Notes under the pieces: model-generated
Told to the model about the DNA's origin: nothing
The model's input: the letters and a program-made list of their open reading frames with translations, nothing else
Databases searched by the model: none
From: Clostridiales bacterium
Lineage (GTDB): Bacteria; Actinomycetota; Coriobacteriia; Anaerosomatales; SLCP01
Reading direction: 5' to 3'
Assembly (NCBI GenBank): GCA_018333995.1
Contig: JAGXSG010000021.1
Coordinates: forward strand, 7,723-71,722
DNA: 64,000 bases
Shown: positions 34,095 to 59,464 of the stretch, one piece after another
Layout of the letters: each line of letters begins with the position of its first letter
How positions within the stretch are numbered: the first letter of the stretch is position 1
Made by a program: the position numbers and the translations under genes

Positions 34095-35615
34095 CTAACG
34101 CTCGGCATCTGGCTCGGGGCGTCGCGATTTCCACGCCGCATGGGCGACAAGCGTGACGCACGCGACGGCGACGGCGGCAACCTGCAGTGTGACTTCCACC
34201 GGCGCAAACACGATATTCGCATACTCGGTGCCGTAATCGTGCTGCAACTCCGGGGGGATCCACGGAATCCACGTCTGGATCGGTGTGAAGCGCACAGAGA
34301 AGTACACTGCTGCGGCACAGACGCCCGCGACCGCCGCCGCCGCTCTCCCGCGGCGTCCGAGCGGACGTGCCAACGTAGCAGCCAAGAGGATCGCGATCGC
34401 CAACGCGAGCCATCCACCCGTCGTGCGAAACCCTTCCAGAACAAACTCGGCGTTAAATGCGGCACCCTCGCCTGTCCGGCCCGTGACCGTCACCGCGACC
34501 CCCGGCGCCACCAAACCGGCAATCGCGAACACCGCCGCAATGAGCGCGAGCGCGTTGCGAGCGAGCGACGCACGCATGTGCGCCCAGACTGGGGCATGCG
34601 TCGCCGTGCCCGGCACGGGAATAAATGCCGCAACCACCGCCGCGCCGATCACCAACGTCGACCACCCGGCTGCCTCAAGCAGAACCGGTCGCGGGCCGAA
34701 AACCCCCGTCGCTTCCTCCACGAACAGAAGAGCCGTGATGAGCGGCGGGCCGACAAGAAACGCGGTCCCCGTAAAGCGGGTTCCCACCGTTCGCGTCACG
34801 TGCACGGCGAGCGCGAACATCAGTCCGCCGGCCGCACCGTACGAAGCGACAGCTGGCGAGGGCGCAAGCCCGGTGAGACCGCCTGCGCCCGCGAACGTCC
34901 CTACCGCGACAGCGGCAACAACCCCGCTGATGGCCGCGGGCAGGTACACGCCGCGTTGACCGTGCTTCTGTGCGAGTCGCGCTAGGGTGTACGAAGCGCC
35001 AACGAACAGCACACCGGCAAGCAACATCGCGACTTCGCGATCGGGATACCTTACGAGCAGAGAAAACGAGCTTGGCCGCTCCCAATTACCAAGAACACCC
35101 ATCGCTCCGGCCACCCCGAGCAGAGCCGCCGCGGCGTATACGGGCATGCGGGAGGCAACCGCCCCAATGAGCAAGAACAGCGCGCCCCAGATCGCCATCG
35201 TCCAGAATGCCACCACCGCGCCGGGCGGCACGTCACTCGCACGGTTGGCCACCACAAGCGCTGGTGCGGCCGCCGCGCCGAGAACACCGGCACACGCGAC
35301 GAACGCCCCATCGCGCGCGCCAAGCGACGTCAAGTCGCCCGCACGGGGCATCCCTCCAAATACACCGAGAAAGAGTAGCGCCCCTACGGTAACCGCAGTG
35401 ACGAGCTGCGCTGTCGACGCATGCGGCACCACGGCGGTCTGCAACACAAACGCCGCCGTAGCGCACAGCGCGAGGACAAGCCACACGCCTGCCGCAAGCG
35501 GCAGCGCGGCCTTGAGGGGCGGGACATAGCGGGGAGGGCCAGGCGTGGCCCGGCCCTCCCCTCGATTGCGCTTGGCGCGCTTACGATCATGCGCAAATGT
35601 CACTTGTTGTGACAC
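34095..35615 (-). CDS. Polytopic membrane protein (about 12-14 TM), unknown function, in the FDH operon
   Basis: 506 aa, almost entirely hydrophobic Ala/Gly/Val/Leu-rich segments; start overlaps the stop of the hexahaem gene (GTG at 35615 or GTGA overlap at 35603). Confidence 0.6.
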   Translation of the reverse strand: MSQQVTFAHDRKRAKRNRGEGRATPGPPRYVPPLKAALPLAAGVWLVLALCATAAFVLQTAVVPHASTAQLVTAVTVGALLFLGVFGGMPRAGDLTSLGARDGAFVACAGVLGAAAAPALVVANRASDVPPGAVVAFWTMAIWGALFLLIGAVASRMPVYAAAALLGVAGAMGVLGNWERPSSFSLLVRYPDREVAMLLAGVLFVGASYTLARLAQKHGQRGVYLPAAISGVVAAVAVGTFAGAGGLTGLAPSPAVASYGAAGGLMFALAVHVTRTVGTRFTGTAFLVGPPLITALLFVEEATGVFGPRPVLLEAAGWSTLVIGAAVVAAFIPVPGTATHAPVWAHMRASLARNALALIAAVFAIAGLVAPGVAVTVTGRTGEGAAFNAEFVLEGFRTTGGWLALAIAILLAATLARPLGRRGRAAAAVAGVCAAAVYFSVRFTPIQTWIPWIPPELQHDYGTEYANIVFAPVEVTLQVAAVAVACVTLVAHAAWKSRRPEPDAER

Positions 35616-36748
35616 GACTGGCAGACACCCCGGTTGTCCATCCGGAGAAACGCGTTCTTGGTTCCCGGATCCACTGCGCCCACACCCGTGTCAGGCTCAG
35701 GATCCGTGGAGTTCCACACATTGGCGTACCCTGTCATCTCCGCGTCGGAACCGTGCGCGCGATGACACGTCAAACAATCGATCCAGTCAGTCGCGCTGCC
35801 CTCAGGAGTCCAGCCGCCAAACTCTTGAGCGAGCGGGAGCGCCTGGTCGGTGACTATCAGCGAACGCGGACCCTTGTAGTTGCCGAGTTCGACGTTCACC
35901 GGATGACGGTGACGTGTCACGAACCCGAACCCGTCGTTCGCGTCGTACACGCTCGAAGTCGCAAGGTCTGGACGGTGATACTGCGTGTGGCATGCGGCGC
36001 ACCATGCGCTGATGCCACGAGTGGGATCGTTGCCGGGAGCCTTGGCATACATCGGCGACGTGTAGTTGGGCTGGTACAGGCCCATCTGCACCGCTCCGGG
36101 ATCGTGAAGCAACCAACCAGAACCGGGGTAGTTGACCTCATTTGAGATCACGTACGGGTTCGGCACGTAGTTGCCCGGGGTCGGCTCCGTGTAGCCGCCA
36201 ACCGTCACACCGTTGACGACGTCTTTAAGGAGCCGGTAGTTGGAGCTGCCGTGCACATCGTGGCACGAGCCGCATGTCATCACGATCTGGTTGCCGTAAC
36301 CCGTCGAGATGATGCCCTCTCGGCCTGTGGCGCCACCGCCCCACGCACCCCATGAACCGCCAACATAGGTATGCTTGTTCCTGCCAACGACATGGTCACC
36401 AAACGCGCCGCTGTTCAGGCCCATACCTGTTGTGCCAAAAGCGGTTCCTTCATAGACACCGTCTACCACATTGGTGTCCGCACCCGCGGCCGCACCGCCG
36501 TGGCACGTGAAGCAGAACTGATAGAGCTCGGTCGCCGTCGAGAGCAAAAGCGCGCTACGACGATCGCCGTCCCGATTCGTCCACGTGATGCTGCTCGCGG
36601 CCGTGTGGGCGCGGTGACAACCGGCGCACGCGTCGGTATCCATCGAGTAGCCACCATGAACACCGAAGTTCGCTAGAGCGACACTTGGGGCGATCAGGAG
36701 CACGGACGCGACCACGGCAAACGCAAGCACTAGTGACAACTTCCGCAT
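35600..36748 (-). CDS. Secreted hexahaem c-type cytochrome encoded with the FDH
   Basis: 6 CxxCH (CAGCH, CFTCH, CGSCH, CAACH, CLTCH, CQSCH); signal peptide MRKLSLVLAFAVVASVLLIAPSVALA; SD GAGAGGTG; N-terminal haem site homologous to that of the 24662-28129 cytochrome. Confidence 0.8.
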   Translation of the reverse strand: MRKLSLVLAFAVVASVLLIAPSVALANFGVHGGYSMDTDACAGCHRAHTAASSITWTNRDGDRRSALLLSTATELYQFCFTCHGGAAAGADTNVVDGVYEGTAFGTTGMGLNSGAFGDHVVGRNKHTYVGGSWGAWGGGATGREGIISTGYGNQIVMTCGSCHDVHGSSNYRLLKDVVNGVTVGGYTEPTPGNYVPNPYVISNEVNYPGSGWLLHDPGAVQMGLYQPNYTSPMYAKAPGNDPTRGISAWCAACHTQYHRPDLATSSVYDANDGFGFVTRHRHPVNVELGNYKGPRSLIVTDQALPLAQEFGGWTPEGSATDWIDCLTCHRAHGSDAEMTGYANVWNSTDPEPDTGVGAVDPGTKNAFLRMDNRGVCQSCHNK

Positions 36749-36753
36749 TCCAA

Positions 36754-37614
36754 TCACCTCTCTCTCACTTCGGCTGGCTCTTCAATGTTTGCTTGACGGC
36801 GTGCGATCACGGCAAGCAACCCGCCAGCGAGCAGGGTCGGCACTAGGGCCGCCTTCGCGAACGGTCCGTTCAACAGGTTCGACACCATCGGTGTGATGTG
36901 GTCTTCGATGAACGGATCAGCTTTTGGCTGGATGATGACTGCCTTCTTGCTCGCCCAGTACACGTTTCCGTCACCTTGCGCCGACACGTACCCGTTGGCC
37001 GGGTCGTTGATGTAGGCGCGGATGCGGGAACGAGTATCCCACTTCATCGCCTTGGCGGGACAGGTGTAGACGCAGCTCGGCTCGTGATCCATCTCGGCGA
37101 CGTGTGCTGAGCCAGGTAGATTGTTGCCGTTTGAAGGAAGCGGTGTGCCGTACGACCTGCCGCGTTGCGTGGTCGCGGATGCGATGGCAGCAGCGGAGCC
37201 GGCTCTCCCAAAGCACATCGTGCACTTCCATGCTTTGGCGGAGGCGAACTCGTCGCTTCCCACACCGATCTTCGGGTAACCGGCCCGGTTGCAATCCAGC
37301 TGACACTGACGATTACAGCGACTCGGATCGCAGCGATCCGGATCGATGGAAACCGCGCCATTCGCCTGCTTGGCAAGCGCCCCAAACGGACAGCGCTTCA
37401 CGCAGGGTGGATCAGGACAGTGCCAGCAACTGAAGCGGATGAACGGACCATTGTCGATCCGCTTTTGCGACTTGATGATCACGCGCGAATCGGGCGCGAC
37501 CTTGTGTATGCCGGGGTCGTCAGCCTTCATCCTCCACGTGCGCTTGCAACTCAGAACGCACCCGCGACACCTCATGCACTTGTCGACATCTTGGAAGATC
37601 GCCATCTCACTCAT
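36754..37614 (-). CDS. fdhB: 4Fe-4S ferredoxin-type beta subunit (FdhB/FdnH/DmsB-like) with C-terminal TM anchor
   Basis: Cys clusters CMRCRGCVLSCK, CWHCPDPPCVKRCP, CDPSRCNRQCQLDC, CTMC...CVYTCP; C-terminal helix AALVPTLLAGGLLAVIA; SD AAGGAGGTG. Confidence 0.8.
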   Translation of the reverse strand: MSEMAIFQDVDKCMRCRGCVLSCKRTWRMKADDPGIHKVAPDSRVIIKSQKRIDNGPFIRFSCWHCPDPPCVKRCPFGALAKQANGAVSIDPDRCDPSRCNRQCQLDCNRAGYPKIGVGSDEFASAKAWKCTMCFGRAGSAAAIASATTQRGRSYGTPLPSNGNNLPGSAHVAEMDHEPSCVYTCPAKAMKWDTRSRIRAYINDPANGYVSAQGDGNVYWASKKAVIIQPKADPFIEDHITPMVSNLLNGPFAKAALVPTLLAGGLLAVIARRQANIEEPAEVRER

Positions 37615-37629: not shown

Positions 37630-40600
37630 TTACGTATTGATCTTCCGGATCTTGCACAGACACGCCTTGTACTCGGGGATCGTCGTGTTGGCGTCCCCCG
37701 CGTCGACCGTAAGGTCGTTCGCGCGCGAACCAACAGACAGTCCTCGCTCGCCCCAGTGCCATGGGATCGCGACCACGCCTGGACCAACCCGCTGATTGTC
37801 AGCCATGCCAACACCCACGCGAGCCACAAAACCCTTGGCGAACGTGCCGGCGTTAGGCGACAGTACCGCCTGGCTCGCCTGTGTCGACTCACCGCGGGCC
37901 GTGATGACGTTGACGTAGTCTCCGGACGTAATCCCCCACCTGTTTGCGTCGACCGAGTTAATCTCGATCCACGGCTCGGGCTCAGCTTCATGGTTCCACG
38001 GATTGTTGCGCGTGATGGGACCGCCCTGGAAGTGCTCGACACACCTGATAGTGGTGAGCACCAGGTCGAAGCTCGAATCGGCCACGTTCTTGCCCACAAT
38101 CAGCGTGTCCGTCGGCGCGAGGTTCCACTGCGTGCCGCCAGGACCGCCAAACCCCGTGCCCATCGTGGTGTTGCGCCCAAATTTGGGGAGCAGACCTTTC
38201 GGGTCACTCTGCGCCAACGGAGTCTCGTATGGCTCGGTATGGGCTGGGAAGCGTCCCGGAATAACATGGACACTCTGCGGAGAGCCTACATTGTCCGGCA
38301 TGTCCGACAGCCGATGGTAGAAACGGTACCACCTCGCGTAGTTGAGATTGATGCCCGCAAGTGCCGTGTCCGTTACAAACAAGCGAGAAATCGAATCAGG
38401 ACTCATGTAGAAGTCGAGCACGTCACCGGGAACGTCGCCATTGTTGTAGAGAACGCGGCGATTGACGAGCCACGCGTAACCCCAGCCCGGGTAGGCAAGG
38501 GTGCCGTTAGGATCACTGGTGTCGCGGCTCTTGGCGCGGTTGAAGACCTTCCACGCCTGCTGGTTGGGGTGAGTGTTCGCAAAGAGCCGTTGCTCCCGGG
38601 TGTCGGTGCCGCTGATCGGACTGCTGCTCGCGTTGTACGCGCCCGTGTAGAGCCACGAGGCGCCGACCGCGGGGGTGCAAAGCTCACGATAGATGCGCTC
38701 GGCGATCCATTCGCTGCCGGTGACGGTGCCCGAATGCGGCGCGGGATCGTCACCGCGCCATATCTCCGCGGTTCCGCTGAGCGACTCGAACGACGGGGAC
38801 ACGCCGGGCTTGTAACCGTAGCGGTTGTAGTAGAAGACGTCGTACGCGCTTGTCTCGGGACGGCCAATCGCAGACCACCGTGCGGTGATGTGCGAAAACG
38901 CGCCGGCCTGGTCGAACGCGTAGGCGAGCCGGAACAGTAGCTCGAGATCTGACTTACTGTTGCCGATGGGATTCACGGCCTTCTCGCGCCACTGCAGGAC
39001 ACGGCCGGAGTTGGCGGTGCTGCCTGCCTCTTCCACATGTGAGCACGATGGAATCAAGAAAGTCACGCTGCCGGGCTTGCGATCGCACGCAGCGGTCTCC
39101 GTCTCGAAGAGGTCGGTAACCGCTAACAGGTCGAGCTCTCTTAGCCCTTTGCGGACCGCGCTCAGATTGGCTTGAGTGACTGCGGGGTTTTGCCCCCAGA
39201 TCACCGCGGCCTTGATGGTTCCCGCGGCCATCTTGCGGAACATCATCGTGTGCAGATCGCCGTTGGTCTTGGGCCACAGGTCGTATAGCGCGTTTGTGAC
39301 CGTACGGTCGAGACCGGGGGTGGTCATCCAAGACCCATCCCCAAAGAAATTGTAGGTAAGGTTGGTAAAGCCCCGCTGCTGGCCGCCCATTGCGGTCGTC
39401 ACGTACGCGCGATCGTAGGTGCCCCCTGAGTTAACCGAGTTGCCCCAGAGGGTGTCCATGTACTTGCCAAACGCGTTTGTATCGTTGGTGGGGGTGGTGC
39501 CCGGAAGCGTATATGTCCCGCCCGCGGTCATCTGCGTGGGGTTCCCCGAGTAGAAGGGGATGAGGTGCGCGAGCACTCCCATGTCGGTCGAGCCCTGGAC
39601 GTTGTGGATGCCGCGAAGCGCGTTGATACCGCCGCCGGCGCGACCCACATTTCCTGTGATCGACTGAAGCACAGCGAACGCTTTCACGTTCTGAGCGCCG
39701 TGCGTGTGCTGGGTCAGACCCATGGCATAGAGCATCGTGGTGACTCGGTAGCCACCCGCAACACCTACCCTGGGATCCTGCGAACCAGTACCCGTGACCG
39801 GCCCAACGCTAGCAGCGCGACTGTGGTCGATGTAGGCGTTGACCATGAACTCAAGATCCGCCGGACTCACACCTGATACATCCTCGACGATCTGGGGTGT
39901 GTACGGTGCAACATGGTCCCAGAGCCGGTTGTAGACCGTATCGGGATTCGCATCAACAGTCGCTGCTTTGACCGGGAAGTTTGAAAACGTGTTCGCTCCG
40001 TCGGTTTTAGTCTCGCGCACGTAGTCCGTTCCCGCAGGATTGACGACGAAGCGGGCGTCCGTGTACTTGGAGCCGCCCGGAACAGAAACCGTCGCGGTAC
40101 CGCCGTCAGGGAAGAACAGATTCGCACTCGTCTCGTTGAGAAACTCGAAGAACTTCGCACGAACCGCCGGTGCGACTCCAGTGCCGGTGTTCATCCTCTC
40201 CATGATTCCACGAGTGATGCCGTTGATGATCGCGACATCGGTTCCGGGCCGGAAACGGATGAAGCGCTCGCCTTTCGCGGGATCGCACTGCAGCGCCGTT
40301 CGTGTCTTGCGGGGATCAAGAACGACGAGCTTGCCTCCCCTGTCCCGAGCGTGGTTGATGTGAGCCATGCACGCCGGGTGGTTCTCGGCGGGGTTCGCTC
40401 CCATGACCACGATCAGCGAAGCGTTGCCTATGTCGCTCCAGTTGTTCGACATGGCGCCTCGTCCAAACGCGGCGGCCAGACCGGCCACCGTGGACGAGTG
40501 TCAAACACGCGCCTGATGCTCGATGTTTGTCGTTCCAAACTGAGCGATCAAGCGGCGATACGTGAAGTTCTGCTCGTTGTTCAGGTGTGATGAGCCAAAG

Positions 40601-41142
40601 AACGCCACCTGCTTGGAGTTGTAACCGTTCTCAACCGACGGCGCTCTACCATTCGCGTCACGAGCCGCCTTCATCCCAGTAGCGATTTCGGTCATGGCGG
40701 CATCGAGGCTCACCTTGTTCCATGGCCCGTTGCCCTCGCGGCGATACGCCACGCCATCAGTGAAGCTCGGGTCGTAGTTAAAGACCGGGTTTTCAGGATG
40801 GCTCGAAAATGCGCCTATGCGGCGCGGATTGGTCACGAGCTGGTACGCGCCGGCGCCCTTAGCGCACAATCCTCCATCGTTCATCGGCGACATGTGATCG
40901 CCGTATACATCAAGCACGTTACCTGCGGAATCAACATCCACGAGCTGTCCACAGCTCGCCGAGCAGTACGGACAAGTGGTGTGGTAGGTGGCCGCTACCG
41001 TCGCAGCAAAGGCGCTTGAAGGTTTGGCCGCGAACTCAAGACCCGCGGCGCCAACAGCCGCGGTGGCGGCGCTTGCCTTCAAGAAATCCCTGCGCGATAG
41101 GTGCAACTTCCCTCCATCCTTGCCCTTGTCGTGAGTACCCAT
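37630..41142 (-). CDS. fdhA: Tat-exported molybdo/tungstopterin (bis-MGD) formate-dehydrogenase-like alpha subunit containing selenocysteine; in-frame UGA at 40503-40501
   Basis: Two ORF-track ORFs (40501-41295 and 37630-40488) are one frame joined by TGA. The junction reads IEHQARV-U-HSSTVAGLAAAFGRGAMSNNW, matching the FDH Sec-site signature. Tat motif SRRDFLKASAATAAVGA; FeS motif CPYCSASCG...GGLCAKG; ATG at 41142 after GAGAGGG. Confidence 0.85.
40471..40489 (-). promoter_or_regulatory. Bacterial SECIS apical hairpin
   Basis: GGUGGCC-GGUCU-GGCCGCC (7 bp including one G-U, 5-nt GGUCU loop) starting 11 nt after the UGA; same V-A-G-L coding context and loop type as I recall for E. coli fdhF. 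Confidence 0.7.
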
Positions 41143-41283
41143 GCGTTTACCCTCTCTTCTCTTCCGCGCTTCTCTCATGAGACCTCGCGGATCGTCCTTC
41201 GAGCGGCCAGTCCGCCCGCATCGCGCGTCGCCGTAGAACGCCTCCTTCCCCTCGCACATCGTGGGGGTTGAGAGAAGAAACAC

Positions 41284-41332
41284 AAAAACCGGCACAGAAG
41301 ACGACCGCTCATGCGGCTGCCACTGAACCGGT
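41284..41332 (-). terminator. Candidate intrinsic terminator / expression platform in the fdhA leader
   Basis: Long imperfect hairpin (ACCGG...CCGGU outer helix enclosing CCGC-AUGA-GCGG) followed by UUUUUGUGUUUCUUCUC; a competing helix GAAGAC/GUCUUC is also possible. Confidence 0.4.
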
Positions 41333-41411
41333 CTTCATCTCATCTCCGCTCCCTTACCCCGCGCACCGACCACCGCAGGCCCCTATGCCGGGGAGCCCGC
41401 TAGATGCATCA

Positions 41412-41508
41412 GTTCCCTTTCCGCCGGGAGGCGCCGCAGTTTCCCACGACACCCTATCGGCCCCGCCACCATGACCATTCCGGTTTTAGGTGAACGGAGC
41501 TCGGGAAC
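41412..41508 (-). promoter_or_regulatory. Moco/Tuco (molybdenum/tungsten cofactor) riboswitch-like element, copy A
   Basis: GUUCCCGAG...CCGGAAU...CCGAUAGGG...GGGAAAC...CGCCUCCCGGCGGAAAGGGAAC; closing helix GUUCCC/GGGAAC; the 3' block GCCUCCC-N-GGAAAGG matches my recollection of the E. coli moaA Moco RNA; paralogous to copy B with compensatory P1/P2 changes. Confidence 0.65.
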
Positions 41509-41554
41509 AATGAGCCATTTGTCACTTTCGAGCTACGTACTTGCTGTATCGAGC

Positions 41555-41580
41555 GGTATTGTAACAAATGTTACAATACC
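41555..41580. promoter_or_regulatory. Perfect 12+2+12 palindrome GGTATTGTAACA-AA-TGTTACAATACC (operator site 1)
   Basis: Read directly; AT-rich in a GC-rich genome; 47 nt upstream of riboswitch copy A; core TTGTAACA-N2-TGTTACAA shared with the sites at 49134 and 59621. Confidence 0.7.
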
Positions 41581-41714
41581 ATCCACGGATAGGATACCAT
41601 ATGGCGCACCCGTGTCAACCGATGGATCACATACCCTGTACCGTATTCCGCAACGCCGGGGCGCCGCTCGGCCAGGCAGACCGTTGCGTGTGAGACCGTT
41701 CGCGCCTCGTCCCC

Positions 41715-43244
41715 TTATCGGGACCGTTCAGGTGAGGTCCCGAGTACCCGCTCCGCGAACAGGCGCGCATCGTACGCGTCGATGCCGAGCGCGCGAGCTA
41801 CACGCGCGATCTCCGGGTCTTGGGTGCACAACGTCTTCGCGCGCCGGGCAAGCACGAGCAATGCCGCTACGTCATGTGACACGCCGCTTCGATCCATGAG
41901 GTTCTTCGTATCCGAGTCGGAGTAGACCTCCGGGGTGAGCAGATCACCGAGCGCCACGCCGTTGATCTCGCGGCCCTTGTAGCGCTCGAACTCCTCGGCG
42001 GGAACGATCCACCGCCAACGCTTCCTCTCGGCCATCTTGCCGATGAGACCGGCGGCGGCGATCTGCTCGAGGAACTCCTCGGTCACTACGAAACGGCGGC
42101 GGCGCGCCAGGAGCAGCAGGGGAAGAAGCACGAGCGGGCTCAGACAAAACGCCCACTGCACGGGAGTCTCCGGCACGATTGGGACAGGCGCGATAGGATC
42201 AGGCCACCCCCACACCTGCACCTGATGGTTCACCCTGTCGGTGAGGAAAATGAAGCCTCGAGTGTCGACCGCCAGATCGTTGGTGTAGCGGAACTGCCCA
42301 GGCCCCACGCCAGGACCGCCAAAGCTCGCGATCCGCTCACCAGCCGCATCGTAGATGTCGCCCTGGTGAGCAAGCGCATCGGCGACGTAGAGGCGCCCCT
42401 GTCCGTCCATGTCGATGCCGCGCGGAATGCCGGATGTGCGAATAATGCGCTCGAACGCACCCGTCTCGTCGAAGACTTGGATGCGCCTGTTGTTGCTGTC
42501 GGCCACAAACACCAAGCCATCTCTCACCACAATCCCGTTTGGAAAGTAGAAGCGCCCGGGGGCGTCGGTGATCTCCTCGGCGGCCGCGAATCCTCCAAAC
42601 CGCCTGATCTCAACTCCCTGAGGGTCGAATACGATGATTTGGTGAAGGTCGTTGCGGCCCACGTCGCTCACCCAAAGATTGCCCGCATCGTCGAAAGCGA
42701 TCGCAAGCGGTGCCCAAATGCGGGCCTCTTCGGCGTCAGCGGGCTCGACCTTGCGCAGGTACTCGCCGGACGGGCTGAACACGTAAAGCGACCGGTGGCG
42801 GCGGTCCGTGACGTATACCTCGCCGTTGGGAGCGACCTCGACGTACACGGGCGTAACGAGCGACGTCGCGTCTTCGTCATTGATGCCGGAAAACGAGAAC
42901 CGATACTCGCCTTCGACCGTGTAGACCTTCACCTCGCCCGCAGTGGGATCGGTGACGTAGACGAGTCCCTCGGCCGAGACGTCGACACCGAGCGGTTCGC
43001 TCAAAGCGCCATCCCCCTCGGGTCCGGTGATCGAGTACAAGTACTCGGGAGGGGTAACGACCTCCTCGGCGCCTCCCCCGATACCAGGCACGGGAAGGCG
43101 CCGGTAGGTGTTGTGGTAGTAGATCGCCCAAAGCGCCGTGCCGAGAAGGGCGAGGAGCACCAGCAGAGCGACGATCTTGCGTCTGGAGGCCGGCGCGTTA
43201 GAGCGGCCGAAAGGATCACTTTCGTATGTGGGATCGTTTACCAT
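41715..43244 (-). CDS. Bitopic NHL-repeat beta-propeller protein with second TM helix and cytoplasmic PIN-like C-terminal domain, paralogue 2
   Basis: Same architecture as 31624-33225: TM, NHL repeats (VADSNNRRIQVFD, LTDRVNHQVQVW), TM FCLSPLVLLPLLLLA, C-terminal RFVVTEEFLEQ...LCTQDPEIARVARALGIDAYD. Confidence 0.65.
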   Translation of the reverse strand: MVNDPTYESDPFGRSNAPASRRKIVALLVLLALLGTALWAIYYHNTYRRLPVPGIGGGAEEVVTPPEYLYSITGPEGDGALSEPLGVDVSAEGLVYVTDPTAGEVKVYTVEGEYRFSFSGINDEDATSLVTPVYVEVAPNGEVYVTDRRHRSLYVFSPSGEYLRKVEPADAEEARIWAPLAIAFDDAGNLWVSDVGRNDLHQIIVFDPQGVEIRRFGGFAAAEEITDAPGRFYFPNGIVVRDGLVFVADSNNRRIQVFDETGAFERIIRTSGIPRGIDMDGQGRLYVADALAHQGDIYDAAGERIASFGGPGVGPGQFRYTNDLAVDTRGFIFLTDRVNHQVQVWGWPDPIAPVPIVPETPVQWAFCLSPLVLLPLLLLARRRRFVVTEEFLEQIAAAGLIGKMAERKRWRWIVPAEEFERYKGREINGVALGDLLTPEVYSDSDTKNLMDRSGVSHDVAALLVLARRAKTLCTQDPEIARVARALGIDAYDARLFAERVLGTSPERSR

Positions 43245-43256
43245 GAGCGCTTCCCG

Positions 43257-44264
43257 TCACTTCGTGTCTGATAGACGCTCTACGGCCGAGGCGGCCTCGG
43301 CGTCGTCCGGTGCCAGATCGAGTACGCGCTGCCACGCGTCCATTGCCGCATCGAGGTCTCCAGTACTTTCATATAACGTGGCGACCAGCCGCGCGGACTC
43401 AAGATCGGTCGGCTCCAAGGCGCGCGCGATGCGCGCTTCCGTGAGCGCGGCCACTGGGTCGCTCGAGACGAGCGCGCGCGCGGCCTCGAGACGATCCGCG
43501 TGCTGACCAAGCTTCTCAAGCTCCTGAAACGGTTCGCGAACTCCCGGAGGCGCGCCATCCGCCGATGTGCGGAAGCGCTCGGCGGCGGCGGCCACGTATC
43601 CCTCGGCCAGTAGCAGGAGTCCGTAATCGTAGTTGGCCTCGGGCATCACCGGATCGAACATGAGCGCGCTCTCAAGGTAGGTGCGCTGATTCCGTTCCGA
43701 GCCGATCTCCCGATACGCGACTGAGAGCGCGTAGTGGGTGTCGGCGGCCGAGCGGTTGATGCGGAGCGCCTCGTGCAAGGATTGGGCGGCCTCCTCGTAG
43801 CGCTTCTGCTCGAGGAGCGTCATGCCGAGCTGGTGGTACCCGGTCCCGAGCCGCTGGTCAAGGCGTGAGAACTGCCCGCCTTCGAGCTCATCGACGAGCG
43901 TGCGCCAGTATCCCTCGGCGGTCTCCCACTCACCTTGGAACATGGCGATCAGGCCAAGTCCCGTGAGCGCGTCGGGATGGTTCGCCTCAAGCTCCAACGC
44001 GGCGTTGAACTGATCGATGGCCTCCCGTGGCTGTCCTGCCGCGGCGTAGGCCTCGGCAAGCGCGATGCGCAAACCTGCGTCATCCGGACTCTCCTCGATC
44101 GCCGCGATCAAGTTGTCGACCGCACGCGAAGCGGGCGCCCCGCGGCGCTCGGCTGACTGCGTGATCACCACAGAGTACGCAAGGTATCCCACCGCGACGA
44201 CAACAAGCACCGCCGCGCCCTTGATCCCCACATCGAGCCATCGCACGTTGTCAAACATTCTCAT
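43257..44264 (-). CDS. Membrane-anchored TPR-repeat protein
   Basis: N-terminal TM GAAVLVVVAVGYLAYSVVI, then repeated TPR-like helices (A-x3-Y-x-x-A-G...A-x-x-x-F-x-x-A-L). Confidence 0.65.
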   Translation of the reverse strand: MRMFDNVRWLDVGIKGAAVLVVVAVGYLAYSVVITQSAERRGAPASRAVDNLIAAIEESPDDAGLRIALAEAYAAAGQPREAIDQFNAALELEANHPDALTGLGLIAMFQGEWETAEGYWRTLVDELEGGQFSRLDQRLGTGYHQLGMTLLEQKRYEEAAQSLHEALRINRSAADTHYALSVAYREIGSERNQRTYLESALMFDPVMPEANYDYGLLLLAEGYVAAAAERFRTSADGAPPGVREPFQELEKLGQHADRLEAARALVSSDPVAALTEARIARALEPTDLESARLVATLYESTGDLDAAMDAWQRVLDLAPDDAEAASAVERLSDTK

Positions 44265-44309
44265 GACTCACTCACCTCGTCAGCGACGGCCGGGCAGGCG
44301 CACGGCGTT

Positions 44310-45908
44310 TCAGATGTTCAGGTCAGCATGGCACCGGCGGCACAGCTGAGAGCCGGGCCACGGCGCGATTTCGACGTTACGGAAATCGAGAGCACCATGA
44401 CAGTCATAGCAGACACGCAAATCGTGTGCCCCGGTGTCGTACGCTTGACGTCCCGCACCCCGCACCCGCGCGACAGTCAGGCCGATGTGGCAGTCGTCGC
44501 ACACGTACGAACGGCCGACCCGCTCGGCGACATCGAAGTGCACCGCGTGGGAGACGAAGCCCATCCGCCGTATCGCGGTCGGCGGCTCGGTGGTCGCCTC
44601 GGGGTGACACTCGACGCAGTTCTCTGCTCGCAGCTCAGCGTCGCGCACGGACACATGGTGGCACTCCTGACACGTCGCACGGTCGGTGTGGCACACCCCG
44701 CAATCGTCGCGCGAGTAACCGTTGGCCGCGTGCGACGCCAGCCACGCGGTCGGGTGCGGCATGGCCGTCTGGTGACAGCGAGAACACGATTCGCTCGTGT
44801 GACATATCGAACACCCGCCGCGCCCGCCGAGATACGGCGCGCCGTGTTGCGCAATCCACTCGACACGCTCGTGGGTGTCAGGGATCACCTGCGCGCTCAA
44901 GGAGCCATCGGCAAGTTGCCTCTCGCCTCGATGGCATTCGGCGCAAACCGGCGATGTATGACACATCGTGCAGTTGACGAGGTCCTCACCTGCCGGTCCG
45001 CTGTGGTCGCGCGCTATGAAATCAGGTGTGTGATCGGCCGGGACGAGGTTGAAATCGGACGGATGGCACGCAAGGCATTCTTCCGGCGCCACCTCGCCCT
45101 TCCCCGCATGCTGGACGCTGTGGCACCGGTAGCACGAGCGCATCGTAGGCAGCGCGGTCTCGTCGGGAGTGTGGGGAAACGCCTCGTGGCACACCTCGCA
45201 TCGATAGTCACGCTCGAGATGGACGGTGTGGGTGAAGATCAGGCCGTCTTCCGCTAGCCCCTCATCAATCCCCGAGTGACAGAACACGCACTGCCCGATG
45301 GCAACCGGATCCTCCGTACGCACGACGAGCGAGGGCCGGGGTTCCGGCGCTGGAACGACGCGGAGGTAAATCGGCGGAGTGGGAGGAGTGTCGACCTCCA
45401 TCTCCTGGTGACACGCATCGCACTGGGCACGCGCGTCGTGGCACATCAAGCAATCATTGAACCCGCCGCGCGAAACCGCCCGGGCGTGCGGTTGGGCGAT
45501 CCAGTCATCGCCGTGATACGCGGGCCGCAAGCGGAACGCACTTGTGTGGCAGTAGCCGCAGTCATCGGCGGCGATAACTCCCGCGCCACTGTGCGCAAGA
45601 CCATGGCACGCGAAACACGTCCGCATCGAAGGAGAGTACGTCACGCCCGCCTCGTGAGCCGGACGGACGTGACACACTGAACACTCGAGCTTGATGTGAA
45701 CGCCGTGACTGAACACAAGCTCAGGGTTAGGGGACTCGGCGATCCGCGCATGACACGCCGAGCAGGTACTCGCGGTAACCGGTCCAGTGAGATCGATCTC
45801 ACTGGGTATCGTCGTGCCTGCGCCCTGTACTGAGCCGGACACGGCGAAGATGGCCGCCATGATGGCGACCGCCGCAATCGTGTGCGCATGTCGGCGGCGG
45901 ATGCTCAT
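44310..45908 (-). CDS. Secreted 20-haem c-type cytochrome built from repeated about 6-haem modules
   Basis: 20 CxxCH motifs counted; modules 1 and 2 are collinear (CSACH..FSHGVH..CSVCH..MRTCFACH..CGYCH..CLMCH..CDACH versus CVFCH..FTHTVH..CEVCH..MRSCYRCH..CLACH..CTMCH..CAECH); signal peptide. Confidence 0.85.
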   Translation of the reverse strand: MSIRRRHAHTIAAVAIMAAIFAVSGSVQGAGTTIPSEIDLTGPVTASTCSACHARIAESPNPELVFSHGVHIKLECSVCHVRPAHEAGVTYSPSMRTCFACHGLAHSGAGVIAADDCGYCHTSAFRLRPAYHGDDWIAQPHARAVSRGGFNDCLMCHDARAQCDACHQEMEVDTPPTPPIYLRVVPAPEPRPSLVVRTEDPVAIGQCVFCHSGIDEGLAEDGLIFTHTVHLERDYRCEVCHEAFPHTPDETALPTMRSCYRCHSVQHAGKGEVAPEECLACHPSDFNLVPADHTPDFIARDHSGPAGEDLVNCTMCHTSPVCAECHRGERQLADGSLSAQVIPDTHERVEWIAQHGAPYLGGRGGCSICHTSESCSRCHQTAMPHPTAWLASHAANGYSRDDCGVCHTDRATCQECHHVSVRDAELRAENCVECHPEATTEPPTAIRRMGFVSHAVHFDVAERVGRSYVCDDCHIGLTVARVRGAGRQAYDTGAHDLRVCYDCHGALDFRNVEIAPWPGSQLCRRCHADLNI

Positions 45909-45917
45909 CAGTCGACG

Positions 45918-47180
45918 CTAACTCCCACCCCTCACCGAACGCCACCACCTGAGAAGCGGGTTCTCGTCCCTCGCGACGCTCTGGCCGTGAATGAGCCCCG
46001 CCGAGTGTTCTATGAACGCCTCTCCGGAACCGCGATGGCACTCCCCGCACGTCGCGACGGCGTTGACCGGGTACATCATCGAGTTCGGGTCGCTTACCGG
46101 CAGCGCCTCGTGAGAGCCGTGGCAGTCCCAGCATGAAGGGGTGTCTCGGCCAGCGCGGCGCTTGTAAGGCGCACCGTGATAGTAGTCATCGTACGTGGCC
46201 CACTCGGCCGAGTGACACTGAGCGCACATCCGCTCCGACGCGAAGTGCAACTCGCGCCTCGCGGCGTCCGTATCGAGGCGCGCGATACTGTGTCCTCCGT
46301 GACACGAACCGCACGTCGCGGATGTGTAGTCGCCCTCGGCGATCAGTGTCCCGTGAATCGACGCTTCGTACGCCGAGACGAGTTCAGCCTGCGCGGGCCG
46401 CTCGCCGTACGCACCCTCGTGGCACGCGAGACACGCCAGGCCCGCATTCACCTGCCACAGCGGTGTCGCCCCACGCTCGCCGGTGTAGTTGAAGTCGACG
46501 TGGCACTCGACACACGTGATGTCTCGATGCGCTGACCAGTCGAGAACGTCTTCATCGACGAAGTACGACTCCGAGCCGCCTCGCGACGCTTTGGCGAGAT
46601 CCGGATTGCCGTGACACGCGAGACATCCGTCGCCCACGTCGTACGTCAAGCCGTCAGAGCGCCATTCGACGTCACGCTCGGCATGGCACGTATCACAATC
46701 GGCACGATCGTGGCACATCGCACACTCCGTGCGAAGAGCGTTCTCGGCGGGATCCACGTGAGGCGTCTCCGCCCACTCGGCAACGTGGGACTCGGGACGC
46801 AGCCGTTCGACGCGCGCACCATGGCACTTCTCACAGGTGTCCCCCGCGATCAATCCCATCGGCCCATGCTGGAGGCCATGACAGTTCCAGCATTCGACCA
46901 TCGCCGGAACATCCGTTCCGGCCGGGGTGTGGGGGTAGCTCAAGTGACAGTTGGAGCACGCGAACCACATGTGCGTCGCGTGAGTGAAGTCGACAAGATC
47001 GCTCTCCACTTCCGCGATCTGGCCGTGGCAGACCTTGCACGCGCTCGCAACCACGGGAGCGCCAGTGTCGATCGTCACCTGTTCGGCGTACGCATGCGGA
47101 ACTCTCGTGAGTGCCGCCACGCACACAAGCGCGACGGCGAAGGCGAGGATGCCGGTCCACGCCTTGAGCCTGTAGGTCAT
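45918..47180 (-). CDS. Secreted/anchored 13-haem c-type cytochrome (6-haem module + 7-haem module)
   Basis: 13 CxxCH; the N-terminal six align with the 20-haem module and the C-terminal seven align with the 7-haem protein (shared YDDYYHG/YNDYYHG, CWDCH, IHGQ); ATG at 47180 after GGGGAG; TM GILAFAVALVCVAAL. Confidence 0.85.
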   Translation of the reverse strand: MTYRLKAWTGILAFAVALVCVAALTRVPHAYAEQVTIDTGAPVVASACKVCHGQIAEVESDLVDFTHATHMWFACSNCHLSYPHTPAGTDVPAMVECWNCHGLQHGPMGLIAGDTCEKCHGARVERLRPESHVAEWAETPHVDPAENALRTECAMCHDRADCDTCHAERDVEWRSDGLTYDVGDGCLACHGNPDLAKASRGGSESYFVDEDVLDWSAHRDITCVECHVDFNYTGERGATPLWQVNAGLACLACHEGAYGERPAQAELVSAYEASIHGTLIAEGDYTSATCGSCHGGHSIARLDTDAARRELHFASERMCAQCHSAEWATYDDYYHGAPYKRRAGRDTPSCWDCHGSHEALPVSDPNSMMYPVNAVATCGECHRGSGEAFIEHSAGLIHGQSVARDENPLLRWWRSVRGGS

Positions 47181-47238
47181 CTCCCCTACCCTTTCTGATT
47201 CCGTGTCAAATACTGACCGCGGGACACCTCCCGCGAGC

Positions 47239-48138
47239 TCATCGGCTGAACATGTCAGCGACCGCGGAGCGGAGCCGCTGGATAAGGCTGTAGAGGGGGT
47301 TGGCGGCGAGCATCTCGCCCTGGCCATGTATTAGCTCGGCGTACTCAAGATACCCCTCGTTGACATCGCCCAGATGACACGCGCCGCACGTCTGGGCGAG
47401 GCGGTCGGGGTGCACTCGCGAGCGTCGGTCGTCCGACGGATATATGTCGTGGTAGCCGTGGCAATCCCAGCACGCGGGGGCATCGAGCGCACCCCTGTGG
47501 TAGGCCCTGCCGTGGTAGTAATCGTTGTAGTTCTCCCAGTGCTCCTCATGACAGCGCCCGCAGACCTCCCACCCGTTGGCGTGCATACCGCTCTGTCCTG
47601 CGGGGTTGTCTGTGAGCGCGACGATGTCGTGCCCGCCGTGACAATCACCGCACAGCGGGACGATCGTCGTTTCAGCTGACGGCGTCACGCCGCCAGCGTC
47701 CACTTCTCCCCTGTGCACGCCTTGACCCAACGCGCGGTTCTGATCCTGGTGACAGTTCTTGCACGCCGAGCGGGACACTCGTTGCCAATCCTCACCGGAT
47801 TGGACGTGAGGCGCCGTAAACGCGAAGTCAAGGTGGCAGCCAGCGCACTGAACGGCAGCGTGGGGACCCGCCTCTAGCTGCGCGGGGTCCACGTAAAAGC
47901 TTCTAAGCCCATCCTCTTTCAGGCGGATGAGGTTCTCGTCGCCATGGCAGACCATGCACCCGGCTTTCGCAGCGGTCGGAAGGGTGAAGTCGACGTCGTA
48001 GCCGTTCACCGGCACCACGTGAGTCCGCGTCGCGTCGTCTTCGACAGCATGAGCGGACCCGTGAACCGCGACCATCGCGCACGCGAACGCCAAACTCGCA
48101 ATCGCAGTCGCCGCGTATGCGCGCGCACTGAGCTTCAT
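47239..48138 (-). CDS. Secreted heptahaem c-type cytochrome
   Basis: 7 CxxCH (CMVCH, CAGCH, CKNCH, CGDCH, CGRCH, CWDCH, CGACH); signal peptide; start overlaps the stop of the cytochrome b gene. Confidence 0.85.
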   Translation of the reverse strand: MKLSARAYAATAIASLAFACAMVAVHGSAHAVEDDATRTHVVPVNGYDVDFTLPTAAKAGCMVCHGDENLIRLKEDGLRSFYVDPAQLEAGPHAAVQCAGCHLDFAFTAPHVQSGEDWQRVSRSACKNCHQDQNRALGQGVHRGEVDAGGVTPSAETTIVPLCGDCHGGHDIVALTDNPAGQSGMHANGWEVCGRCHEEHWENYNDYYHGRAYHRGALDAPACWDCHGYHDIYPSDDRRSRVHPDRLAQTCGACHLGDVNEGYLEYAELIHGQGEMLAANPLYSLIQRLRSAVADMFSR

Positions 48139-48998
48139 TCACGCTCACCCATCGACGGCGCGAGTGCCCCGGTGCCGCTAGCGTGAGTGGACGTAGGCGG
48201 GTGATCGTGGCCGCCGTGGCTGTCGTGAGAGCTTGGGAGACCGAAGAAGCTCTGAAACGCCGGAAAGTCCTCGGTCATCGAAAGATACGCGTGGATCGTC
48301 GTCAATATGATGAACAGCCACGTGATGATGTAGTGCACCGTCCGAGCGTACCACCCCGCGAGATCAGTCGAGCCGAGAAGGGCGCCGAGCCACCAGCCGA
48401 GGAGAAGGTCGCGAGGACTCATGTCGATCAGCGGAAGTGGCGCCACGACGAGCGCAAAGCCGGTGAACGCTTGAACGATCAGGAGCGGCACAAACAAGGT
48501 GTACGTGCCCTTCTGCATGACGTTGTACTTGCCGAGATGCGGCTTGGAACTCTTCACAAAGATGTAGTAGAGGACGACTTTGGGCGCGGTCACGATGTCT
48601 TGCTTGGTGATCGCGAACTCCCTGTAGTCGCGTTGCTTCGCGAAGAACGCATACCACAAACGCCAGATCAGGTTGATCGTCACGATGATCATGAACACGT
48701 AGTGGATCCACCGCATGGCGGTACGGCCGCCGTCAAAAAACGGGAACCGGATGTAAAGACCGGTGAATCCAAGCGCGAACATCGAGAACACGTGCTGGAA
48801 ATGGAGGAACTTCGGGAGGAACGGAATCGGCGGGCCGTCGTGGTGCGGCCACTGCTTGTGGACAAACCTCTTCTTGATACGCCCGCTAAGGATATTGCCG
48901 AAGAAGTGGACCGTGAGCGCCACGACCATCACGACATACAATGCCGTGAATCCGACATCCAGCCAGACGTTCAGTTCTGTCAGTGCGATCTCTGACAC
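48135..48998 (-). CDS. Membrane dihaem cytochrome b (HydC/FdnI/PhsC, PF01292-like) - probable quinol/quinone-interacting subunit
   Basis: 287 aa, 4-5 TM with conserved His (VHFFGN, FLHFQHVF, RWIHYVF, TVHYIITW...TTIHAY); GTG start after GGGAG; His-rich C-terminal tail. Confidence 0.7.
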   Translation of the reverse strand: MSEIALTELNVWLDVGFTALYVVMVVALTVHFFGNILSGRIKKRFVHKQWPHHDGPPIPFLPKFLHFQHVFSMFALGFTGLYIRFPFFDGGRTAMRWIHYVFMIIVTINLIWRLWYAFFAKQRDYREFAITKQDIVTAPKVVLYYIFVKSSKPHLGKYNVMQKGTYTLFVPLLIVQAFTGFALVVAPLPLIDMSPRDLLLGWWLGALLGSTDLAGWYARTVHYIITWLFIILTTIHAYLSMTEDFPAFQSFFGLPSSHDSHGGHDHPPTSTHASGTGALAPSMGERE

Positions 48999-49097: not shown

Positions 49098-49126
49098 AAG
49101 CCGGGTGTGTGCCGGACACCCGGCTT
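49098..49126. other. Perfect 11-bp GC-rich stem-loop (7-nt loop) in the intergenic region
   Basis: AAGCCGGGTGT-gtgccgg-ACACCCGGCTT; no adjacent U/T tract on either strand. Confidence 0.5.
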
Positions 49127-49133: not shown

Positions 49134-49151
49134 TAGTAACAACGGTTACAT
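49134..49151. promoter_or_regulatory. Operator-like palindrome site 3: TAGTAACA-AC-GGTTACAT
   Basis: 15/18 identity to the tup-leader site, including the AC spacer; about 136 nt upstream of the cytochrome b start. Confidence 0.5.
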
Positions 49152-49202
49152 TTCAACACAGCGCCCCCGTAAGGGCAAGGTGACAACTCACCGCCGCGAC
49201 GC

Positions 49203-49451
49203 TCACAAATCCGCCACCTCTACGCTGCGCGCGACTTCGATTCCCGCGCGGTCCAGGTACTCGGCGGCACGCACCGCGTCAGCCACATCCAGCCTCAGCC
49301 CGATGCCACATAGCGCCCCGAAACCCTTGGGGGCGGGTACCGGGATAAGCGGCACTCCCAGGTCAAGTAACACACGCTCCGCGTCGAGCGCAGCATGTGT
49401 GGTGGTAAACCCAAAGATCACGAAGTGGTGTTGGCAACGTGCGGCCATCAC
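49203..49451 (-). CDS. DUF3343-like small protein (putative S/Se-handling accessory)
   Basis: 82 aa; FVIFGFTTTHAALDAERVL...LIPVPAP...CGIGLRL pattern typical of DUF3343; start overlaps the desulfurase stop. Confidence 0.6.
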   Translation of the reverse strand: MMAARCQHHFVIFGFTTTHAALDAERVLLDLGVPLIPVPAPKGFGALCGIGLRLDVADAVRAAEYLDRAGIEVARSVEVADL

Positions 49452-50662: not shown

Positions 50663-51153
50663 GCGTGGCCCCCGCCCGCGATCATCTCGGCCGCGTGCTC
50701 AAGCTGGTCGGCGACGAAGCCAAACGTCTCGCGGGCTGCCTTCTCGCTTCCGGGCAGGTTGATCACGAGCGTGCGTCCCCGCAACGCCGCGGTCGCTCGA
50801 GAAAGCATCGCGCGGCGGGTGATGCGCATGCTCTCGGCGCGCATCGCCTCGACAATGCCGGGCGCGACCCGGTCGCACACATCAAGCGTCGCCTCGGGAG
50901 TGACATCGCGAAGGCTCAATCCGGTGCCTCCACAGGTGAACACGGTGTCCGCCGCAAGATCGTCAGCGTACTCGACGATCGTCTCGGCGATCCTCGACCG
51001 GTCATCGGGCACCACGCGGTGCGCTACTACCTCCCACCCGCGAGCTCGGCAGAGCTCCGCGAGCGCCGTTCCCGCCGAGTCTTCTGCGAGCGGGCGCGTG
51101 TCAGAACAGGTGAGGATCGCGATCCTGAGCGCTCGCTCACCCATCGGAGCCAT
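50659..51153 (-). CDS. moaB: MoaB/MogA-family molybdopterin adenylyltransferase-like protein
   Basis: IAILTCSDTR...TCGGTGLSLRDVTPEA...LPGSEKA; start uncertain (51153 or 51144; the ORF track gives 51213). Confidence 0.75.
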   Translation of the reverse strand: MAPMGERALRIAILTCSDTRPLAEDSAGTALAELCRARGWEVVAHRVVPDDRSRIAETIVEYADDLAADTVFTCGGTGLSLRDVTPEATLDVCDRVAPGIVEAMRAESMRITRRAMLSRATAALRGRTLVINLPGSEKAARETFGFVADQLEHAAEMIAGGGHA

Positions 51154-52209: not shown

Positions 52210-52216
52210 TGGCTCG

Positions 52217-53814: not shown

Positions 53815-54013
53815 AGTTTTTGACCCTTATGCCAGCGAGGTCAGCCGCGGCGCCCGCGACTTTGTACGGCACACCGGTGTCCTCGGCGAGCTTGCGCAGC
53901 ACCGGACACGTGAGGGTGCCGTCACTCGACTTGTCCAAGACAGCGGCGGTCAACTCCGGCGTGACCTGTTCGGCGAAGCGGGGGTCGATCCGTTTGGGGG
54001 ACGAACCGCTCAT
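53795..54013 (-). CDS. Small conserved-looking protein of unknown function ending CDLGCF
   Basis: 72 aa, embedded between moeA and mobB with overlapping start and stop; Cys at TLTCP and CDLGCF. Confidence 0.45.
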   Translation of the reverse strand: MSGSSPKRIDPRFAEQVTPELTAAVLDKSSDGTLTCPVLRKLAEDTGVPYKVAGAAADLAGIRVKNCDLGCF

Positions 54014-56708: not shown

Positions 56709-56731
56709 GCTCAGCTCACTTTCATCATGTC

Positions 56732-58542: not shown

Positions 58543-58575
58543 GACCGCACACCACTTCCCGACTGAGCCGCGCGG

Positions 58576-59457: not shown

Positions 59458-59464
59458 AAGTCTG

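Follow-up and report, generated by a model that had tools for sequence, protein, structure and literature searches.

Within the 64,000-nucleotide stretch of DNA analysed here (the window), three operons are each preceded by a similar short palindrome. These operons encode a selenocysteine-containing formate dehydrogenase, a block of cytochrome b and multihaem cytochromes, and tungstate uptake together with molybdenum cofactor (Moco) biosynthesis. The question raised by this locus is whether the palindromes form one shared control element and, if so, at which level they would act and what kind of protein would bind them. The original prediction grouped the three sites into a candidate regulon, found in them no likeness to familiar operators and named a neighbouring LysR-family gene as the obvious source of the binding protein.

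Genes around the palindromes

The gene assignments underlying that prediction were confirmed with Pfam and NCBIfam (Table 1). All genes from the LysR gene to the fdhA operon are encoded on the minus strand. In the direction of transcription, the order is the LysR gene, site 2, a Moco riboswitch, the tup/Moco genes, site 3, the cytochrome block, site 1, a second Moco riboswitch and fdhA. The fdhA gene starts with the ATG at 41142 and carries its selenocysteine codon as an in-frame TGA at 40501-40503 (context HQARV*HSSTVAG). The tup/Moco string comprises tupABC, mobA-fdhD, moeA, mobB, moaA, moaC, a MOSC-domain gene and moaB/mog, followed by a cysteine-desulfurase/SclA-like gene and a Se_S_carrier-like ORF (49203-49451).

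Several other features of the neighbourhood were observed. Divergent from the LysR gene, a Fur-family gene (60726-61226, plus strand) is the first gene of a cbiM/N/Q/O-type Ni/Co transporter operon. A Fur-box-like sequence, TGAGAATCATTATCATTCT, at 60736-60754 overlaps the start of this gene, and a similar box (TGAGAATCATTATCA, TGAGAATCATTCTCA or TGAGAACGCTTCTCA) occupies the same place in L208, L210, L014 and L008 (contigs and loci from elsewhere are designated by L numbers). Two short contigs, L006 and L007 (1-357), carry an identical LysR gene with another upstream gene (118 aa, same strand) in place of the Fur/cbi operon, a difference that could be a strain-level rearrangement or an assembly variant. 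Elsewhere in the window, a gene for a HamA-domain (Hachiman-type defence) protein (8740-9522, minus strand) adjoins one for a RelA/SpoT-domain protein (9751-10884, minus strand), and an ORF of 1145 aa (5300-8737) lies upstream of this pair.

Table 1. Features of the window, and fdhA dyads of the window and seven other genomes
Feature	Position	Strand	Basis or sequence
Multihaem cytochrome, after Fe-S subunit	35600-36757	-	Pfam
Fe-S subunit, after fdhA	36754-37614	-	Pfam
fdhA, TAT-exported molybdopterin formate dehydrogenase with selenocysteine	37630-41142	-	Pfam, translation, SRRDFLK TAT motif
Terminator-like hairpin (GACCGG...CCGGT) with T-run, between aptamer and fdhA ATG	41277-41333	-	Partly detected; also in relatives
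Moco/Wco riboswitch aptamer, fdhA leader	41398-41518	-	RF01055, 68.8 bits (gathering score 36)
Site 1, candidate operator dyad, fdhA promoter region	41555-41580	-	Palindrome; GTAAC-N4-GTTAC at the same place in 6/7 other genomes
Predicted sigma-70-type fdhA promoter	41591-41618	-	-35 TTGACA (41618-41613), 16-nt spacer, TG before -10 TATCCT (41596-41591)
Cytochrome b (48135-48998), three multihaem cytochromes c, TPR protein, NHL-repeat protein	41715-48998	-	Pfam
Site 3, candidate operator dyad upstream of cytochrome b/multihaem operon	49134-49151	-	Orthologous dyad in L210, L212, L213
Putative promoter of cytochrome b (cytb) operon	49150-49178	-	-35 TTGCCC (49178-49173), 17-nt spacer, -10-like TGAAAT (49155-49150)
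tup/Moco gene string	49203-59457	-	Pfam and NCBIfam matches, L001 gene table
Moco/Wco riboswitch aptamer, tupA	59453-59576	-	RF01055, 55.2 bits (gathering score 36)
Putative tupA promoter	59601-59629	-	-35 TTGTTA (59629-59624), 17-nt spacer, -10 TATCGT (59606-59601)
Site 2, three 9-bp units, perfect and overlapping imperfect dyad	59621-59647	-	In all 7 same-species contigs
LysR-family regulator	59705-60604	-	NF040786, 267 bits (cut-off 250)
fdhA dyad, window			TTGTAAC-ATTT-GTTACAA
fdhA dyad, L212			ATGTAAC-AATC-GTTACAA
fdhA dyad, L213			TTGTAAC-AATC-GTTACAA
fdhA dyad, L214			TCGTAAC-AAAC-GTTACGA
fdhA dyad, L215			TTGTAAC-AAGC-GTTACAA
fdhA dyad, L216			TTGTAAC-TCGCG-GTTACA (5-bp spacer)
fdhA dyad, L217			TTGTAAC-GTTT-GTTACAA
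fdhA dyad, L218			TTGTAAC-TTTT-GTTACAA

A non-random element shared by three operons

All three palindromes were found at their predicted positions and in their predicted form. Site 1 reads GGTATTGTAACA-AA-TGTTACAATACC, a 12+2+12 palindrome with no mismatch, and its core 18-mer spans 41559-41576. Site 2 (TTGTAACAA CTGTTACAA CTGTTACAA) is built from three 9-bp units, of which the first two form a perfect 8+2+8 dyad at 59621-59638 and the third creates a second, overlapping and imperfect dyad. Site 3, TAGTAACAACGGTTACAT, has mismatches at three of the 16 specified positions.

When TTGTAACANNTGTTACAA was searched with up to three mismatches, four matches were obtained in the 64-kb window against an expectation of 0.01, and this number was reached in none of 100 shuffles. 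The core GTAACNNNNGTTAC, with at most one mismatch, occurs five times in the window against 0.37 expected; the fifth of these matches, at 35389, is located within a coding ORF and looks like a chance occurrence. Sites 1, 2 and 3 each contain the 10-base core GTAAC-N4-GTTAC without a mismatch. In addition, all five occurrences of the heptamer TGTWACA in the 64 kb fall within site 1 or site 2. The match counts, compared with expectation and with shuffles, support the proposal that a non-random cis element is shared by three functionally linked operons. An origin as a mobile element or repeat was considered and rejected, as there are only three copies, all at promoters, with flanks that lack similarity to each other.

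Conservation in related genomes

The nearest relatives of the window are metagenome-assembled genomes labelled Coriobacteriia or Anaerosomatales. Metagenome contigs matching the window were found in ENA ERZ27300252 and in several Logan runs, and closer syntenic contigs were found via protein homologues. For fdhA, eight genomes of a Coriobacteriia/Anaerosomatales-like clade were compared, with FdhA proteins 56-68% identical to that of the window. One upstream layout is common to all eight: TTGAC(A/G), 16-18 nt, TAnnnT, 11-17 nt and the dyad. In an alignment of six of these upstream regions (A1, mean column identity 60%), invariance is confined to GTTGAC, TA...T, GTAAC and GTTAC, and the same layout is present in L217 and L218, whose FdhA proteins are 56% and 60% identical to that of the window. 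The spacing is informative as well. The distance from the -10 hexamer to the dyad is constrained to 11-17 nt. The spacing of dyad and riboswitch, in contrast, differs by about 9 nt when L212 is compared with the window, and the dyad is thus tied to the promoter. The pattern is a textbook phylogenetic footprint.

At the cytochrome b operon, orthologues of site 3 were found in L210, L212 and L213, reading AATGTAAC-TCGT-GTTACGAG with diverged flanks. In L214 the dyad has decayed, and the flanking TTGCCT-N17-TGTAAT is kept. The cytochrome block is syntenic in L212-L214; L215-L218 retain the cytochrome-TPR-NHL block, with no cytochrome b gene seen. Phylogenetic footprinting, which the original prediction had proposed as a check, was successful for site 1 (eight genomes) and for site 3 (four genomes).

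Site 2 is found in all seven contigs of the window species and nowhere else. The corresponding position in L008, L014, L208, L209 and L210 has an ordinary promoter and no dyad; L210 has, instead of site 2, a dyad ATGTAACA-GA-CGTTACAAT in the tupC-mobA spacer. Across approximately 190 kb of close relatives (L208-L218), GTAAC-N4-GTTAC occurs 10 times, nine times at fdhA or cytb promoter positions and once in this L210 spacer, and there were no occurrences in 844 kb of more distant tupA loci. Also, a TupA-based scan of GTDB genomes yielded 80 loci (best 52-71% identical) in which the motif was absent throughout, and site 2 is thus regarded as lineage specific. Taken by itself, the TupA scan would have misled toward a verdict of 'not conserved'. 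The shared regulon therefore stands at fdhA and cytb, where the motif is conserved, and shrinks at tupA to the window species. The regulon would accordingly be described as a conserved core (fdhA, then cytb) with a variable periphery and, judged by their conservation, the palindromes are real, evolutionarily conserved and functional cis elements.

The L210 locus differs from the window in a further respect. At 8507-9792, the interval from LysR to tupA has an insertion with genes for a small TOBE/Mop protein and an extra regulator (HTH_20 plus PBP_like, 330 aa). The inserted genes look like an additional molybdate/tungstate-sensing module, which the window does not have.

Promoters and the sign of regulation

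The fdhA promoter was called by a consensus scanner with 10 of 12 matches (0.1 expected), and its -35 and -10 hexamers are invariant in the six genomes of A1 and present in L217 and L218. No call was made by the scanner for the cytb promoter, in which the second position of the -10 hexamer is not A, or for the tupA promoter. At cytb, the putative hexamers are marked by the pattern TTGCCY/TTGCTT-N17-T(G/C)(T/A)AAT, kept in five genomes including L214 with its lost dyad (alignment A2). The putative tupA promoter was placed by its likeness to L208 (TTGAGC-17-TATCTT-9 nt-hairpin) and L210 (TTGTTC-16-TATGGT-9 nt-hairpin); in the window, the -10 hexamer is likewise followed by 9 nt and the hairpin that precedes the aptamer.

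Relative to the predicted starts, the dyads are centred at approximately +16.5 (site 1), -35.5 (site 2) and +0.5 (site 3). The perfect dyad of site 2 covers the putative -35 hexamer, and site 3 overlaps the putative -10 hexamer and start. Activators of the CRP/FNR family bind sites centred at -41.5 or -61.5, and none of the three sites has this spacing from its predicted start. A protein bound at about +16, over the -35 hexamer or over the -10 hexamer and start would block RNA polymerase, and these positions, reckoned from predicted starts, suggest repression.

The position of site 1 downstream of its promoter leads to a different reading, in which the palindrome works as RNA, as a 5'-terminal leader stem-loop with a role in mRNA stabilisation or in recognition by an RNA-binding protein. 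The fdhA dyad lies within the predicted transcript (+8 to +25) and a stem of 7-11 bp is possible, and a hairpin would fit both the 5-nt spacer of L216 and the symmetric change in L214 (TCGTAAC...GTTACGA). The stem, however, keeps an invariant sequence, with no covariation, at unrelated loci (fdhA, cytb, tupA and mobA), and the exact 18-mer also occurs upstream of CRP/FNR genes in other contigs. Furthermore, the dyads of sites 2 and 3 overlap a -35 hexamer or a -10 hexamer and start and would be incompletely transcribed, so that the RNA reading fits site 1 alone and is considered extremely unlikely. An element acting at the DNA level is preferred because sites 2 and 3 overlap promoter hexamers, at least part of each dyad being untranscribed.

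Three further promoter models were rejected. On inspection, TGTAAC could not be read as the -35 element of an ECF sigma factor, since no consistent CGTC-like -10 element occurs at 16-18 nt. The palindrome's own TGTTACAAT was discarded as an extended -10 element, as TACAAT is not conserved (e.g. ...GTTACAACG, ...GTTACGAAC) while the upstream TTGACA/TAnnnT is. Class II activation was set aside because L212 and L213 have no conserved -10 element about 30 nt 3' of the dyad.

Directly downstream of site 3, the cytb leader contains a hairpin (49098-49123, minus strand; GCCGGGTGT-CCGGCAC-ACACCCGGC). An equivalent hairpin with a ...GTCCGGC... loop is kept in L210 and L212-L214 (alignment A2).

Moco riboswitches in two of the leaders

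The elements originally described only as riboswitch-like are Moco RNA motifs (RF01055), both scoring above the gathering score. They had been placed 47-56 nt from the palindromes, which is approximately right: the distance from the dyad centre to the 5' end of the aptamer is 49.5 nt at site 1 and 53.5 nt at site 2. The 3' end of the tupA aptamer overlaps the tupA ribosome-binding site. At fdhA, the aptamer is followed by a terminator-like hairpin, with an equivalent hairpin and TTTTG in L212-L214, L217 and L218, which is probably the riboswitch expression platform. The same interval contains, at 41350-41360, GGGGTAAGGGA, an instance of a conserved GGGGTAAGG(G/A) box that recurs in L212-L214, L217 and L218. 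The conserved box and the terminator-like hairpin with its T-run in the relatives suggest that the fdhA riboswitch acts by transcription attenuation, unlike the tupA riboswitch that overlaps the ribosome-binding site.

With Moco riboswitches found downstream of both site 1 and site 2, dual protein and RNA control of these two operons, as first proposed, is a reasonable reading. The E. coli moaABCDE operon is controlled by ModE/FNR and a Moco RNA motif, that is, by transcription factors and a riboswitch together. Sites 1 and 2 resemble this system, since in each case a putatively protein-controlled promoter precedes an operon related to the Mo/W cofactor whose leader contains a Moco riboswitch. 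They differ from it in regulator and motif, and in that the arrangement here also heads a selenocysteine formate dehydrogenase operon.

Which protein would bind the palindromes

The original prediction stated that the motif resembles no FNR/CRP operator. This was wrong: GTAAC-N4-GTTAC, the invariant core, coincides with the consensus published for HcpR2 (PMC1274295) and has the geometry of the Clr site (PMC10187061). The HcpR2 branch of the CRP/FNR family has the consensus GTAACnnnnGTTAC, which has been ascribed to a Pro in place of CRP Glu181 (Rodionov et al. 2005, PMC1274295), and sites 1, 2 and 3 contain this core exactly. HcpR2 is known from Clostridia, Bacteroides, Thermotogales and Treponema, always with hcp (PMC1274295). 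Clr of Sinorhizobium meliloti, another CRP-family protein, recognizes HGTYHC-N4-GRWACA, was crystallised on TGTTAC-N4-GTAACA and has the recognition helix R-P-K-V-N-R (PMC10187061). An even-centred GTnAC-N4-GTnAC layout (equivalent to TGTnA-N6-TnACA) is present in the three window sites and in ten sites of relatives, with the N5 variant of L216 as the exception.

HcpR2 operators and the sites described here are identical in invariant core and spacing, and both are two-fold symmetric dyads suited to a dimer. The settings differ, since HcpR2 hosts and targets come with hcp, whereas here the host is an actinobacterium with no hcp seen, the targets are formate dehydrogenase, cytochrome and tup/Moco operons, and the positions are repression-like. 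The Clr site shares the 6+4+6 geometry and the conserved C and G beside the 4-bp spacer, and Clr has an R-P-x-V-x-R recognition helix. Its half-site TGTTAC differs from TGTAAC in the swapped central base, and Clr is a cAMP/cGMP-dependent regulator of an alphaproteobacterium, in contrast to the actinobacterial host here.

The exact 18-mer was found in at least 120 metagenome contigs. Among the matches listed, 11 contigs encode a CRP/FNR-like protein and, in eight of these 11, the 18-mer lies at most 250 nt upstream of the CRP/FNR gene; by estimate, chance would produce this adjacency in well under one contig. Such an arrangement reads as a signature of autoregulation. Pfam analysis of six of the 11 proteins identified a cNMP_binding domain in all six and HTH_Crp_2 in five. 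The recognition helix of these metagenome proteins is R-P-S-[VIL]-[AG]-R and thus has Pro where CRP has Glu181, a signature tied to this motif in the literature. The matches listed come almost entirely from unrelated, AT-rich contigs, mostly Bacteroidota-like, some of the matches probably lie inside coding sequence, and the scan speaks to the nature of the motif in those organisms and not in the window organism.

Three GC-rich contigs containing the 18-mer (L199, L128 and L174) were inspected and proved to be unrelated. In one of them, L128 (1-1836, GC 0.60), the exact 18-mer lies directly downstream of genes for an NrfD-like membrane subunit and a MoaD-like protein (C-terminal GG), so that this unrelated contig presents another GC-rich, molybdoenzyme-related setting. 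In the AT-rich, Bacteroidota-like L194, GTAAC-N4-GTTAC occurs at 595, 1452 and 3165 around CRP/FNR, YeeE/YedE-like, TauE-like sulfur-transport and ArsR genes, and the contig looks like a small sulfur-related CRP/FNR regulon.

No CRP/FNR gene was found in the 64-kb window or in approximately 190 kb of the loci of close relatives, and the regulator would therefore be encoded elsewhere. HcpR-type regulators are described as controlling hcp, and an HcpR regulon proper is linked to hcp and nitrosative-stress genes. No hcp gene was found in the window or related loci, and the sites are thus classed as HcpR2-type operators only, not as an HcpR regulon. The 5-bp spacer of L216 speaks against a rigid dimer, which may not tolerate this spacing. 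Small and unannotated ORFs near the sites, including a 232-aa ORF divergent from cytb in L212, were considered as hidden regulators and gave no Pfam match, and a literature search with the literal 7-mers returned mostly primer sequences.

The neighbouring LysR protein, which would bind the palindromes and control selenium- and tungsten-dependent formate metabolism, is the sole regulator adjoining any site. Its match to NCBIfam NF040786, 'selenium metabolism-associated LysR' (267 bits), suits the neighbourhood, and the proposed targets include a selenocysteine enzyme and the SclA-like/Se_S_carrier gene pair. Orthologues of this LysR nevertheless adjoin tupA in four relatives, L008 and L014 (55-60% identity) and L208 and L210 (phmmer E ~1e-120), and GTAAC-N4-GTTAC is found neither upstream of the LysR gene nor in the LysR-tupA interval in any of them. 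L210 has two sites elsewhere in the locus and none at its LysR and tupA upstream regions. The helix-turn-helix region is very similar where it was aligned (L008 and L014) despite the absence of the motif. The LysR gene also runs in the same direction as its neighbours and is not divergent from them. The binding box of LysR-type regulators is typically an odd-centred T-N11-A, whereas the dyad here is even-centred (T-N10-A). Another palindrome, AGATATC-AG-GATATCT (60632-60647), occupies the LysR gene's own upstream region. The LysR protein, far from being the obvious binder, is quite unlikely to be the binder at all. This other palindrome is perfect, lies approximately 25 nt upstream of the LysR start codon and is absent at the LysR genes of L008, L014, L208 and L210; in the window species, the LysR gene may itself be controlled through it.

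A Rex-type NADH/NAD+-sensing repressor is a serious alternative on functional grounds, given the respiratory targets and the repressor-like positions. Such a protein, recognizing an altered half-site (TTGTAAC for TTGTGAA), would make formate oxidation and the synthesis of cytochromes dependent on the redox state. The Rex operator TTGTGAA-N4-TTCACAA (PMC2883068; PMC6391272) is of equal 18-bp width and has the outer TTGT...ACAA in common with the sites; it too lies over promoters for repression and serves a respiratory/redox regulon. In addition, Parvivirga hydrogeniphila, a cultured strain of the Anaerosomatales, has a Rex-type repressor gene in a cluster of multihaem cytochromes (PMC9686372). 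The original prediction had found no match to Rex, and this was upheld, as every site has AAC/GTT where the Rex operator has its inner GAA/TTC. Half-site positions 5 and 7 are G and A in Rex operators and A and C here, so that two of seven positions depart from the consensus, including the bases most conserved in Rex sites (PMC6391272). GTAAC is present in all 14 dyads (four in the window, ten in relatives) and in the N5 variant of L216, and GTGAA in none. No rex gene was found in the window, and the exact core instead has a published CRP/FNR match (PMC1274295). A Rex-type binder is therefore judged unlikely. The absence of a match to ModE was also borne out, since its consensus sequences, cgGTCACg-N14-cGTGACCg or, in delta-proteobacteria, atCGnTATATA-N6-TATATAnCGat, bear no resemblance to the sites (PMC545781).

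The core could also have been reached by coincidence by a dimeric regulator of another family, such as an ArsR, TetR, Xre or NarL-type 7-2-7 binder. Operators of 12-2-12 and 7-2-7 layout also occur with ArsR/SmtB and NarL regulators, and no cognate gene was seen in the window or related loci. Nothing positive was found for any of these four families, however, and the half-sites of ArsR, TetR, Xre and NarL-type regulators differ from the GTAAC dyad. This alternative has a low probability.

A CRP/FNR-class (HcpR2/Clr-type) repressor of the three promoters, encoded outside the window, is the preferred reading, with slightly better than even confidence. The palindromes would be DNA operators for a homodimeric helix-turn-helix regulator of the CRP/FNR family with the HcpR2/Clr specificity (half-site GTAAC, 4-bp spacer). 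This regulator would gate the promoters of the selenocysteine formate dehydrogenase operon and the cytochrome b/multihaem operon and, in the window species only, that of the tungstate-uptake/Moco-biosynthesis operon. Bound at its operators, it would occlude RNA polymerase and so repress transcription. The Moco riboswitches downstream would add cofactor-dependent control to fdhA and tupA, in series with the operator. With only a small chance, the binder is no ordinary CRP/FNR paralogue but a regulator that senses a novel signal (such as formate, the tungstate/selenium status or the availability of extracellular electron acceptors), or else the selenium-associated LysR, and would then form with the Moco/Wco riboswitch a two-input gate that turns on formate-driven extracellular electron transfer in Anaerosomatales-like Actinobacteria.

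Biological significance

As a whole, this is a sound regulon prediction of a familiar sort that involves no new mechanism, and E. coli moa already provides, in principle, an example of a transcription factor paired with a Moco riboswitch. The value of the prediction lies in a cis-regulatory code that can be tested in the OPB41/Anaerosomatales-like Coriobacteriia, a subsurface lineage that is largely uncultured and whose respiration of Fe(III)/sulfur, driven by formate and hydrogen, was described only recently (PMC9686372). The fdhA operator, kept in eight genomes, offers a handle for finding the regulator through a search for an autoregulated gene, and can delimit a regulon that joins selenocysteine formate dehydrogenase and multihaem cytochromes with the supply of W/Mo cofactor. 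CRP/FNR-type sites of the GTAAC-N4-GTTAC class would also become known from a new phylum and in an apparently repressive function. If the two-input gate proved true, it would be the first transcriptional circuit to be defined for multihaem-cytochrome respiration in the Actinobacteria phylum.
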